Origin: Escherichia coli
GTDB lineage: Bacteria; Pseudomonadota; Gammaproteobacteria; Enterobacterales; Enterobacteriaceae
Length of the DNA: 64,000 nt
Direction: 5' to 3' (one strand)
Assembly: GCF_003790525.1 (NCBI RefSeq)
Contig: NZ_CP033635.1
Part shown: positions 29,039 through 48,053 of the stretch, piece by piece
How positions within the stretch are numbered: the stretch's first letter is position 1
Layout: every line of letters starts with the position of its first letter
Translations under genes and position numbers: made by a program
Notes under the pieces: generated by a model
Databases searched by the model: none
Seen by the model: the letters and a program-made list of their open reading frames with translations, nothing else
What the model was told of the DNA's origin: nothing

Positions 29039-29176
29039 TTGTAGGACGGATAAAAAGTTCAAGCTGCATCTGGCGATACGGTGCGCAATGCCTGATGCGA
29101 CGCTGTCGCGTCTTATCATGCCTACGAGTTCGATGCCCTGTGTAGGCCAGATAAGGCGTTTACGCCGCATCCGGCA
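29039..29176. repeat. REP/BIME cluster
   Basis: Two inversely oriented REP-type palindromic units (GCCTGATGCGACGCTGTCGCGTCTTATCATGCCTAC and TGTAGGCCAGATAAGGCGTTTACGCCGCATCCGGCA) plus a partial unit. Confidence 0.7.
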
Positions 29177-39740: not shown

Positions 39741-39840
39741 GCCGGATACGGCGTAAACGCCTTATCCGGCCTACAAGATTCAAAGAAATCAGTAAATTGC
39801 AGCACACATTGTAGGCCTGATAAGCGTAGCGCATCAGGCA
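39741..39840. repeat. REP/BIME pair
   Basis: GCCGGATACGGCGTAAACGCCTTATCCGGCCTACA and inverted TGTAGGCCTGATAAGCGTAGCGCATCAGGCA. Confidence 0.7.
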
Positions 39841-44797: not shown

Positions 44798-44798
44798 G

Positions 44799-45512
44799 AT
44801 GGAAAAAGTCATGTTGTCCTTTGACAAAGTCAGCGCCCACTACGGCAAAATCCAGGCGCTGCATGAGGTGAGCCTGCATATCAATCAGGGCGAGATTGTC
44901 ACCCTCATTGGCGCGAACGGGGCGGGGAAAACCACCTTGCTCGGCACGTTATGCGGCGATCCGCGCGCCACCAGTGGGCGAATTGTGTTTGATGATAAAG
45001 ACATTACCGACTGGCAGACAGCGAAAATCATGCGCGAAGCGGTGGCGATTGTTCCGGAAGGGCGTCGTGTTTTCTCGCGGATGACGGTGGAAGAGAACCT
45101 GGCAATGGGCGGCTTTTTTGCCGAACGCGACCAGTTCCAGGAACGCATAAAGTGGGTGTATGAACTGTTTCCGCGTCTCCATGAACGCCGTGTTCAGCGG
45201 GCGGGCACCATGTCCGGCGGTGAGCAGCAGATGCTGGCGATTGGGCGCGCGCTGATGAGCAACCCGCGTTTGTTGTTGCTTGATGAGCCATCGCTCGGGC
45301 TGGCACCGATTATCATCCAGCAAATTTTCGACACCATCGAACAACTGCGCGAGCAGGGGATGACCATCTTCCTCGTCGAGCAGAACGCCAACCAGGCGCT
45401 GAAGCTCGCTGATCGCGGCTACGTGCTGGAAAACGGTCATGTGGTGCTCTCCGATACTGGTGATGCACTACTGGCGAATGAAGCGGTGAGAAGTGCGTAT
45501 TTAGGCGGGTAA
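44799..45512 (+). CDS. livF: Branched-chain amino acid ABC ATPase LivF
   Basis: Start taken at ATG 44799 (MEKVMLSFDKVSAHYGKIQALH...), 237 aa, Walker A GANGAGKTT. Confidence 0.9.
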   Translation: MEKVMLSFDKVSAHYGKIQALHEVSLHINQGEIVTLIGANGAGKTTLLGTLCGDPRATSGRIVFDDKDITDWQTAKIMREAVAIVPEGRRVFSRMTVEENLAMGGFFAERDQFQERIKWVYELFPRLHERRVQRAGTMSGGEQQMLAIGRALMSNPRLLLLDEPSLGLAPIIIQQIFDTIEQLREQGMTIFLVEQNANQALKLADRGYVLENGHVVLSDTGDALLANEAVRSAYLGG

Positions 45513-45518
45513 ATTATC

Positions 45519-45551
45519 AATAACCCGGCAGCTAAGTTCTGCCGGGTTATT
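45519..45551. terminator. Hairpin after livF
   Basis: Perfect 13-bp inverted repeat AATAACCCGGCAG / CTGCCGGGTTATT with 7-nt loop, 7 bp after the livF stop; no strong T-run. Confidence 0.5.
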
Positions 45552-45630
45552 CGTCCGTATACAGACTTGTTTCAACAGACCGGGAGGATTAAAACCAGAC
45601 CACTTATTTGCCACGGAAAGGTTTGCTCCC

Positions 45631-46377
45631 ATGCATTATGCCGTTGTTGTCATGCTTGAACTGCTTTGCTGTATTCACGCTTACCGTACCGGACAAGAGC
45701 GGTACTGGATTTTTATCATTTTCTGTTTTCCGGTGATTGGCTGCGTGGCGTATTTCGTCATAGTGATGTTGCCTGAAACGGGCGCTGACCGTCACGGGCA
45801 TACTTTGCTGATGCGCCTGCAGGACAAACTCAACCCTGAGCGCCACCTGCGCAAATTAACCGAAGAACTGGCGATTGCCGAGACGAATCAAAACCATTAT
45901 GCGTTGGCTAATGAACTGGTGTGTCTGGGGCGTTATCACGAAGCTGTTCCCCATTATCAGCAGGCGTTAAGCGGGATATTCGTCCATGAAGCGGCAATGA
46001 TGCTAAGCCTGGCGCAGGCGCAGTTTGCCATTCAGGAGTTCGCCGCCTGTCAGCAGACGCTGGAAGATGTGATGCGTTATAACCCCGATTTTCAGTCGGC
46101 AGACGGGCATTTGTTATTTGCCAGAGCGTTAGCCGCACAAGAAAAATACGCTGATGCGGAAAGCGAGTTTGAGGTGTTGATTTCTTATTACTCCGGCCCG
46201 CAGGCGCGTATTTACTATGCGGAAATGTTGGCGAAAATGAGTCGGTTACGTGAAGCCAACGAGCAGTATATTGCTGTGGTTGATACGGCTAAACGTTCAA
46301 AACCACATTATAGAAAACACCACCGGGAATGGATTAAGACCGCCAATGAACGGCTGAAGCAGAGTGTGGTGCAATGA
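45631..46377 (+). CDS. Hypothetical membrane-anchored protein: N-terminal PLDc_N-like two-helix domain plus C-terminal TPR-like helical domain
   Basis: 248-aa ORF; N-terminus VVVMLELLCCIHAYRTGQERYWIFIIFCFPVIGCVAYFVIV resembles the PLD-nuclease N-terminal membrane domain; remainder predicted helical-repeat. Own terminators downstream. Confidence 0.55.
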   Translation: MHYAVVVMLELLCCIHAYRTGQERYWIFIIFCFPVIGCVAYFVIVMLPETGADRHGHTLLMRLQDKLNPERHLRKLTEELAIAETNQNHYALANELVCLGRYHEAVPHYQQALSGIFVHEAAMMLSLAQAQFAIQEFAACQQTLEDVMRYNPDFQSADGHLLFARALAAQEKYADAESEFEVLISYYSGPQARIYYAEMLAKMSRLREANEQYIAVVDTAKRSKPHYRKHHREWIKTANERLKQSVVQ

Positions 46378-46447
46378 AAATCTTCTTTGCCGTTAGACCA
46401 GTGTCGCGGCAATCTTTTGTTAAAATTGAAAAATGTAGCTCTCATCG

Positions 46448-46485
46448 GGCAGCAAAACTGGACGCAGAATTTGCTGCCATTTTTG
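46448..46485 (+). terminator. Rho-independent terminator downstream of the 248-aa ORF
   Basis: Stem GGCAGCAAA / TTTGCTGCC followed by ATTTTTG; a second hairpin GGCGATTA / TAATCGCC + TCTTTT lies at about 46507-46537. Confidence 0.55.
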
Positions 46486-46600
46486 CTCTTCATGGTAAGG
46501 AGTTCTGGCGATTAGCTGGCCGTTAATCGCCTCTTTTCAGTGCATTCTCGGGATATCCGTGCCCCATCTCCCATTTTCCCTCACCCGTACCGTCACCGCC

Positions 46601-46618
46601 TTGTCATCTTTCTGACAC
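46601..46618 (+). promoter_or_regulatory. Pho box (PhoB-binding site) of the ugpB promoter
   Basis: TTGTCATCTTTCTGACAC resembles the two-direct-repeat pho box consensus CTGTCATA(A/T)A(T/A)CTGTCA(C/T), about 120 bp upstream of ugpB. Confidence 0.5.
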
Positions 46619-46736
46619 CTTACTATCTTAAAAATGTAACAAAATAGTTATTTTTCTGTAATTCGAGCATGTCATGTTACCCCGCGAGCATAAAACGCGT
46701 GAATTCGCGCATTCGGTACAACAAGAGAGATAATCA

Positions 46737-48053
46737 ATGAAACCGTTACGTTATACAGCTTCAGCACTGGCGCTCGGACTGGCTTTAATGGCAAATGCGC
46801 AGGCAGCGACGACCATTCCGTTCTGGCATTCTATGGAAGGGGAACTGGGTAAAGAGGTGGATTCTCTGGCCCAACGTTTTAACGCCGAAAACCCGGATTA
46901 CAAAATTGTACCGACCTATAAAGGCAACTACGAACAGAATTTAAGCGCGGGGATTGCCGCATTTCGTACCGGCAACGCTCCGGCTATTTTGCAGGTTTAT
47001 GAAGTTGGCACCGCCACCATGATGGCGTCGAAAGCCATTAAACCGGTATATGACGTGTTTAAAGAGGCGGGGATTCAGTTCGATGAGTCGCAGTTTGTGC
47101 CGACGGTTTCAGGCTACTACTCCGACAGCAAAACTGGGCACTTACTCTCCCAGCCGTTCAACAGCTCGACTCCCGTTCTCTATTACAACAAAGACGCCTT
47201 CAAGAAAGCCGGTTTAGACCCGGAACAGCCGCCGAAAACCTGGCAGGATCTGGCGGACTATGCCGCGAAACTGAAAGCCTCCGGTATGAAGTGCGGCTAC
47301 GCCAGCGGCTGGCAGGGCTGGATCCAACTGGAAAACTTTAGCGCCTGGAACGGTCTGCCGTTTGCCAGCAAAAACAACGGCTTTGACGGCACAGACGCGG
47401 TGCTGGAGTTCAACAAGCCGGAGCAGGTGAAACACATCGCTATGCTCGAAGAGATGAACAAGAAGGGCGATTTCAGCTACGTCGGGCGTAAGGATGAATC
47501 CACCGAGAAGTTCTATAACGGTGATTGCGCGATGACGACCGCCTCTTCCGGTTCTCTTGCCAACATTCGCGAGTACGCCAAATTTAACTATGGCGTAGGC
47601 ATGATGCCTTACGATGCCGATGCGAAAGACGCGCCGCAAAACGCCATTATCGGCGGAGCCAGTCTATGGGTAATGCAGGGTAAAGATAAAGAAACCTACA
47701 CCGGCGTGGCGAAGTTCCTCGACTTCCTCGCAAAGCCAGAAAACGCTGCCGAGTGGCATCAGAAAACCGGCTATCTGCCAATCACTAAAGCGGCGTATGA
47801 CCTGACCCGTGAGCAGGGCTTTTACGAGAAAAACCCAGGAGCGGATATTGCCACGCGTCAGATGCTGAACAAGCCACCGTTGCCGTTCACCAAAGGTTTG
47901 CGTCTGGGCAACATGCCGCAGATCCGCGTGATTGTGGATGAAGAGCTGGAGAGCGTGTGGACCGGTAAGAAGACACCACAGCAGGCGCTGGATACTGCCG
48001 TTGAGCGTGGGAACCAGTTACTGCGCCGCTTTGAGAAATCGACGAAGTCTTAA
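46737..48053 (+). CDS. ugpB: Periplasmic sn-glycerol-3-phosphate-binding protein UgpB
   Basis: 438-aa ORF with signal peptide. Confidence 0.95.

Follow-up and report, generated by a model that had tools for sequence, protein, structure and literature searches.

A K-12-absent Escherichia coli gene between livF and ugpB is predicted to encode a tetratricopeptide repeat protein with a ClsA-type membrane hairpin

Between the liv and ugp operons, in the interval that separates livF (44798-45512, stop at 45512) from ugpB (46737-48053, start at 46737), the window (the whole stretch of 64,000 nucleotides of Escherichia coli DNA analysed here) holds an ORF of 248 codons that begins with ATG and is read on the plus strand. 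A first-pass annotation, made from the sequence alone, had picked out this ORF, and its coordinates, start codon and N-terminal peptide were all recovered as claimed. The ORF is a genuine, uncharacterised gene that has already been annotated; strain SC516, the sequence of which matches the window at 100% identity, carries it as WP_000558843.1, and the O157:H7 version of the protein is WP_000558842.1. In O157:H7 Sakai it is most likely ECs4300, as ugpB is ECs4299 and livK is ECs4305 in the Sakai numbering (PMC2241611). The caveat of the first-pass annotation, that this might be a long-annotated conserved gene, therefore applies, given the probable Sakai locus tag and the generic tetratricopeptide repeat (TPR) name in RefSeq, and as annotation already exists the gene is unstudied rather than undiscovered. 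Literature searches with PLDc_N/PF13396, Z and ECs locus tags and the UniProt-style protein name found nothing on it, and ECs4300 was not found in the supplements of a Sakai growth-transition study. The gene had also been credited with its own start, which holds for translation but not for transcription: a Shine-Dalgarno-like sequence precedes the ATG and M1 is kept in 90% of 140 family members, which supports this start codon, whereas no convincing sigma-70 promoter was seen in the 79 nt between the hairpin behind livF and the ATG.

The gene is flanked on both sides by hairpins, the coordinates of which are given with those of the other features in Table 1. The U tract behind the hairpin that follows livF is weak and the terminator scan missed it; this hairpin is likely to terminate the liv operon or to stabilise its 3' end, and divides livF from the TPR gene. 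Downstream, where two hairpins had been claimed, both were found, the second having a clean 10-bp stem (46507-46531) followed by TCTTTTC, a terminator-like arrangement immediately upstream of the ugpB promoter region. Hairpins on both flanks, and the lack of any neighbour conserved across clades (see below), fit the description of a stand-alone gene. Rfam gave no match within 45300-46900. The 50-codon ORF that overlaps the stop codon of the TPR gene is the hypothetical protein WP_001302354.1 in SC516 and is unannotated in O157:H7; tblastn gave no match to half or more of it in the other Escherichia or Citrobacter loci, PADLOC and PHROG gave none, and the segment that contains it is missing in cryptic-clade Escherichia, where a single hairpin and ~60 bp are seen instead. 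We regard it as a probable annotation artefact and not a gene.

Table 1. Features at the livF-ugpB locus (positions in the window)
Feature	Position	Strand	Basis or remark
Long-allele block	45513..46553	+	Boundaries from aligning long and short alleles
13-bp hairpin directly 3' of livF	45519..45551	+	Folding dG -20.9 kcal/mol, z -5.8
Shine-Dalgarno-like GGAAAGG	45615..45621	+	9 nt 5' of the CDS ATG, read from the sequence
CDS, 248 aa, predicted PLDc_N-type membrane hairpin and TPR domain	45631..46377	+	RefSeq WP_000558843.1, 'tetratricopeptide repeat protein'
Predicted hydrophobic helix 1, residues ~3-20	45637..45690	+	Hydropathy; AlphaFold2 helix 2-20
Predicted hydrophobic helix 2, residues 26-47, with W26-x7-P34-x2-G37-x3-Y41 (PLDc_N core)	45706..45771	+	Pfam, hhalign, conservation
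Two predicted linker helices, residues 54-82	45790..45876	+	AlphaFold2 secondary structure
Predicted TPR domain, residues ~84-248, four helix-pair repeats and C-terminal capping helices	45880..46374	+	
50-codon ORF overlapping the TPR-gene stop codon (ATGA)	46374..46526	+	
First downstream hairpin-prone segment, with T5 run	46443..46494	+	Folding dG -17.6, z -2.8
Second downstream hairpin	46507..46541	+	Terminator scan; folding dG -19.5, z -3.5

Of 5426 complete E. coli genomes, 659 (~12%, including those of O157:H7 and O145:H28) carry the coding sequence, which is always chromosomal. The other 88%, K-12 among them, are without it, and the spacer between livF (b3454) and ugpB (b3453) in MG1655 is 398 bp long and gene-free, which bears out the remark in the first-pass annotation that the classical E. 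coli map has no gene here. The block that differs between the alleles runs from just after the livF stop to ~180 bp upstream of the ugpB ATG, and in most E. coli including K-12 it is replaced by an unrelated segment of ~215 bp, made up of a small terminator hairpin and a pair of palindromic units of the REP type. A 30-mer of this short allele recurs in the window with one mismatch at 29146-29175 (plus strand) and 39741-39770 (minus strand), where the number expected by chance is 0, and the short-allele element is therefore taken to be a dispersed REP. A repeat search of the K-12-type spacer turned up no exact inverted repeats.

The gene has homologues with conserved synteny in other Escherichia species and beyond, the order livF-TPR gene-ugpB being kept in cryptic-clade Escherichia, E. 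whittamii, E. albertii, Citrobacter freundii, Citrobacter sp. NCU1 and Pseudocitrobacter. In the type strain of E. albertii, NBRC 107761, the orthologue (L015 8001-8743) is a pseudogene, put out of frame from about residue 185 onwards by the deletion of one base pair, and Shigella records contain partial proteins. No Salmonella, Klebsiella or Enterobacter locus occurs among the best 80 of 260 matching genomes in a scan that used two peptide patterns only, which suggests that the gene is missing from these three genera. The simplest history is that the gene is ancestral at livF-ugpB in the Escherichia/Citrobacter lineage and that most E. coli have lost it by replacement; loss from 88% of E. coli implies that its function is not needed in most lineages.

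Other changes are seen at the same locus. In C. freundii the interval from the TPR gene to ugpB (L005-L007 5850-7324) contains unannotated ORFs of 93 and 135 aa together with a Phd antitoxin and Fic/Doc toxin pair, insertions which mark the livF-ugpB gap as a variable spot or insertion hotspot. Between the window strain and O157:H7 the synonymous divergence of livF and ugpB is 0.21-0.24 and that of the TPR gene between them only 0.065, and the livF of the window is closer to that of a cryptic-clade Escherichia (dS 0.16) than to that of O157:H7, a pattern that suggests mosaic recombination in the past of this locus. Elsewhere in the window, at ~60091-63389 (NZ_CP025048 2336047-2339345), a DprA-like gene overlaps a RecQ-family helicase gene between yhgN and gntU. 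K-12 is not known to have such a pair at this site, and the two genes look like a small accessory island that is possibly defence-related.

The protein belongs to a family that extends well beyond the enterobacteria. A search of 1.84 billion representative proteins with a profile built from 13 relatives returned at least 512 clusters (50% identity) at E<=1e-30, the best 150 of which are nearly all 240-255 aa long with end-to-end matches, and 260 species-level genomes encode a relative (the locus query was taken from the 13-sequence alignment, a 49-sequence alignment being too divergent). The top Foldseek matches in AFDB50 are members of the same ~245-aa family from Citrobacter, Xenorhabdus, Pseudomonas, Xanthomonas, Lysobacter, Gilliamella, Saezia (Beta), Maricaulis and Aliidongia (Alpha) and Desulfonema, and the family occurs in Gamma-, Beta- and Alphaproteobacteria. 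Its members are named in UniProt as 'Tetratricopeptide repeat protein', 'Cardiolipin synthase N-terminal domain-containing protein', 'membrane protein' and once 'LapB', and neither Pfam nor NCBIfam has a model specific to them. It is a large unnamed family with one fixed architecture of ~245 aa across Proteobacteria. N-terminal extensions seen in some homologues were considered as fused domains and rejected, as each such homologue has an internal Met where the canonical start falls and the extensions look like products of start mis-calling.

In a plasmid collection there were four full-length matches, on replicons of 1.6-2.3 Mb in Ralstonia and Methylobacterium, and a fifth that is partial (41% of the query) on a 373-kb Comamonas plasmid, and phage records contained no relative. 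An origin in anti-phage defence or in a prophage was rejected, there being no PADLOC or PHROG match and no phage record. The Enterobacteriaceae MAG Hs463 carries two tandem paralogues (L018 2129-2866 and 3035-3769) that are 37% and 45% identical to the window protein.

For the first ~50 residues a PLDc_N-type membrane hairpin of two helices is predicted, the module that anchors the cardiolipin synthase ClsA. A resemblance to PLDc_N had been proposed for the N-terminus and is supported by profile searches, by alignment with ClsA and by hydropathy. The Pfam PLDc_N match (PF13396) at residues 26-44 is marginal and covers helix 2 only (i-E 6.9e-4, score 20.0); among 49 diverse members 14 match this model at E<=1e-3 and 33 at E<=0.1, the best at 3.4e-6. 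When compared with residues 1-99 of ClsA from MG1655, the family profile aligned over 23 columns to ClsA residues 37-59, which are TM2 (hhalign E 3.7e-5), and the W-x7-P-x2-G-x3-Y spacing is identical in the two helices. Helix 1 is weaker in the E. coli protein owing to E10 and is clearly hydrophobic family-wide (mean Kyte-Doolittle 2.5); it ends in a near-invariant histidine, H16, which is followed by the loop [RK]-T-G-R. In 140 aligned members conservation reaches 98% at H16, 99% at W26, 93% at P34, 99% at G37, 99% at Y41 and 96% at P48, and PxxG is found in 130 of the 140. The best-conserved positions of the family are therefore those of the membrane hairpin and not of the TPR domain. As the hairpin is the most constrained part it probably does more than anchor passively, and might for example contact anionic lipids or a membrane partner.

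PLD-superfamily cardiolipin synthases have two HKD (HxKxxxxD) catalytic domains after the hairpin. An identity as a cardiolipin synthase or other PLD enzyme was rejected for the present protein, as neither PLDc nor PLDc_2 was matched in Pfam and NCBIfam and the C-terminal part is TPR. The likeness to ClsA is that of the anchor, which in both lies at the extreme N-terminus and has two hydrophobic helices, a short positively charged loop, the same helix 2 motif and a positively charged spacer ahead of the soluble domain. Unlike ClsA, the family has a TPR cargo in place of the HKD catalytic domain, a shorter loop and, as a feature of its own, the near-invariant histidine at the end of helix 1. 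The catalytic domain of ClsA is cytoplasmic in normal cells and inverts to the periplasm upon PE depletion or osmotic down-shock, and both activity and the inversion depend on the native two-helix hairpin (Sawasato, Dowhan and Bogdanov, Sci Adv 2025; PMC11698083). The PxxG of ClsA helix 2 was proposed in that work to permit a membrane-dipping conformation, although dual topology was not lost when the motif was mutated (PMC11698083).

The remaining ~165 residues, described in the first-pass annotation as a helical repeat, are modelled as four TPR repeats and a cap. AlphaFold2, run with the 13-sequence alignment (mean pLDDT 86.7, pTM 0.69), places helices at residues 2-20 and 23-51, the latter broken at residue 33 just before P34, then linker helices at 54-67 and 69-82, four helix pairs at 86-222 and capping helices at 225-247. 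Several TPR models in Pfam match this part of the protein (TPR_19 at 5.7e-5), so that profile search and structure prediction agree with the earlier description. The linker segment is Arg/Lys-rich across the family and has a proline, P69, that is 94% conserved. The conserved positions of the TPR domain are mostly structural Ala, Leu and Gly, and hence no binding site is evident. Among solved structures all matches were to TPR/PPR proteins and none of them covers the hairpin; the soluble bacterial TPR proteins MamA and YrrB are only 15-16% identical and are without the membrane hairpin, the likeness being that of the generic TPR fold.

Among characterised TPR proteins LapB (YciM) invites comparison. 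It is an inner-membrane-tethered cytoplasmic TPR adaptor of ~389 aa that controls the turnover of LpxC by FtsH, and has a single-helix anchor, 9 TPRs and a C-terminal rubredoxin-like zinc-binding domain. The present protein shares with it an N-terminal membrane anchor followed by TPRs and the proposed logic of a scaffold at the cytoplasmic face of the inner membrane, but it differs in its length of 248 aa, its four repeats, its predicted two-helix PLDc_N hairpin and its lack of C-terminal CxxC pairs. Identity with LapB was rejected on this size and repeat number and because no LapB model was among the NCBIfam matches at E<=1; the name given to one family member in UniProt looks like an over-annotation. 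Other NCBIfam candidates were likewise rejected since their scores fell far below the cut-offs: CpoB (YbgF; TIGR02795, 28.4 bits against 90.1), HemY (TIGR00540, 15.5 against 142), PrsT (TIGR02917, 17.2 against 312) and SctY (NF052415, 19.7 against 70). These sub-cut-off matches reflect generic TPR similarity only.

The neighbourhood of the gene was surveyed in 80 loci from species-level genomes, with all ORFs clustered by all-vs-all BLASTP and the clusters counted by genus, and no neighbour conserved across clades was found in them. The only widely shared cluster was an antisense ORF of the TPR gene itself, the rest being generic ABC ATPases or lineage-specific genes. Outside Escherichia/Citrobacter the family gene lies in unrelated neighbourhoods; in Budviciaceae, for example, its neighbours are an ABC-F ATPase and RhlE. 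Guilt by association therefore offered no candidate partner from the 80-locus clustering and was set aside as a route to one. Nine Xanthomonadales genomes (L065, L066, L068, L072, L073, L079, L080, L085 and L086) have accA directly upstream on the same strand, at less than 100 bp from the family gene and just before position 8001 of these loci, which is possibly a lineage-restricted link to lipid synthesis.

From these features we consider it fairly probable that this functional chromosomal gene encodes a small inner-membrane-tethered TPR adaptor, the TPR domain of which is predicted to be cytoplasmic. The PLDc_N hairpin would insert in the inner membrane and leave the TPR domain on the cytoplasmic side, where its concave surface would bind a putative protein partner and hold it at the membrane; the protein would then work in the manner of tethered adaptors of the LapB/YciM type whilst not being a member of the LapB family. 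The wording of the first-pass annotation, a membrane-tethered scaffold or adaptor, is a reasonable inference.

The orientation in the membrane is central to this proposal. Across the 140 family members the 15 residues after helix 2 carry on average +3.0 Lys/Arg and the first 25 carry +5.0, and one homologue has RRRR directly after helix 2; positive charges in such a place block translocation of the domain that follows, and in normal cells a hairpin of like kind, together with its positively charged spacer, retains the globular domain of ClsA in the cytoplasm (PMC11698083). The positive-inside rule and the ClsA analogy together place the TPR domain in the cytoplasm, which is the likelier side. 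From charge alone, however, the orientation is ambiguous, as the conserved [RK]-T-G-R inter-helix loop is positive too, with a mean of ~+2.2 Lys/Arg in its nine residues, and ClsA can itself invert under PE depletion or osmotic down-shock to bring its domain to the periplasm (PMC11698083). With the loop on the cytoplasmic side helix 2 would be a signal anchor and the TPR domain periplasmic, and the first residues after helix 2, which are acidic (P-[ED]), would suit that arrangement, as would a weak NCBIfam match to YbgF/CpoB (2e-6). YfgM, CcmI and CpoB (YbgF) are envelope TPR proteins, anchored in the inner membrane or associated with it, that have their TPR domains in the periplasm, and the protein would in that case be an envelope chaperone or adaptor like them. 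Unlike these three its charge pattern favours the cytoplasm, the matches to CpoB, HemY and others are far under their cut-offs, the TPR fold matches are generic and so uninformative on compartment, and no cytochrome-maturation, Tol-Pal or Sec genes were found near the family gene in the loci examined. We therefore regard a periplasmic TPR domain as unlikely.

The cytoplasmic adaptor must also be weighed against the reading that the gene is a decaying relic in E. coli, without current function and heading for the loss already seen in K-12. Absence from 88% of complete E. coli genomes, the frameshifted copy in the E. albertii type strain and the partial proteins in Shigella would be in keeping with decay, as would a GC3 below that of the neighbouring genes and an evolution several-fold faster than that of livF and ugpB. 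Where the gene is kept, however, it is kept whole, with a query coverage of 80% or more in all 659 matches and of 98-100% in 59 of the 60 genomes listed, and the length and architecture of the family are fixed across Proteobacteria. Furthermore, when the gene is compared pairwise with its counterparts in O157:H7, two cryptic-clade Escherichia and E. whittamii, dN/dS is 0.10-0.23, as against 0-0.05 for livF and ugpB in the same genomes, values which indicate purifying selection on the TPR gene that is more relaxed than on its neighbours. The gene thus appears dispensable, yet under purifying selection where it is retained, and decay seems to us very improbable. The same dN/dS values, taken with the RefSeq annotation, the full-length occurrence in 659 of 5426 genomes, the conserved locus and the conserved M1, mark the ORF as a real gene and not a chance one. 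Less credible still is a membrane-bound regulator, such as an anti-sigma-like or signalling protein, in place of a scaffold. A small PLDc_N protein of Bacillus subtilis, YxlE, is a reported negative regulator of SigY, no other part of the protein is as well conserved as the membrane module, which would be expected of a sensing element, and on one Pseudomonas-like contig an ECF sigma and zf-HC2 anti-sigma pair lies ~5 kb away. That pair, however, is neither adjacent nor on the same strand, no sigma or transcription factor is a conserved neighbour in the 80 loci, and no DNA-binding or sigma-binding domain was detected with Pfam or NCBIfam.

A tethered adaptor with its TPR domain in the cytoplasm remains our preferred reading, and on present evidence this is an ordinary, dispensable membrane-anchored TPR protein with an unusual anchor, both domains of which had already been caught by automated annotation. 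It is a long shot, by analogy with ClsA, that the PLDc_N hairpin is a portable lipid-responsive topology switch for which this family supplies a second, non-enzymatic cargo. Were that so, the lipid state of the membrane would set whether the TPR domain is exposed to the cytoplasm or the periplasm and would link membrane composition to protein-protein interaction. The conservation of the hairpin (H16, W26, PxxG and Y41), the positive charges that flank helix 2 and the adjacency of accA in Xanthomonadales are compatible with such a switch and are no proof of it, and lipid-sensing or flipping by the TPR protein is speculation. The gene is of modest interest as a conserved gene present in O157 and absent from K-12, an absence through which it has escaped functional genomics on laboratory strains, and as a natural second cargo of the ClsA hairpin. 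The family shows what looks like a ClsA-type hairpin reused with a non-catalytic cargo, and would offer a simple second system in which to ask whether that hairpin does no more than anchor or is a module that senses lipids and switches topology.
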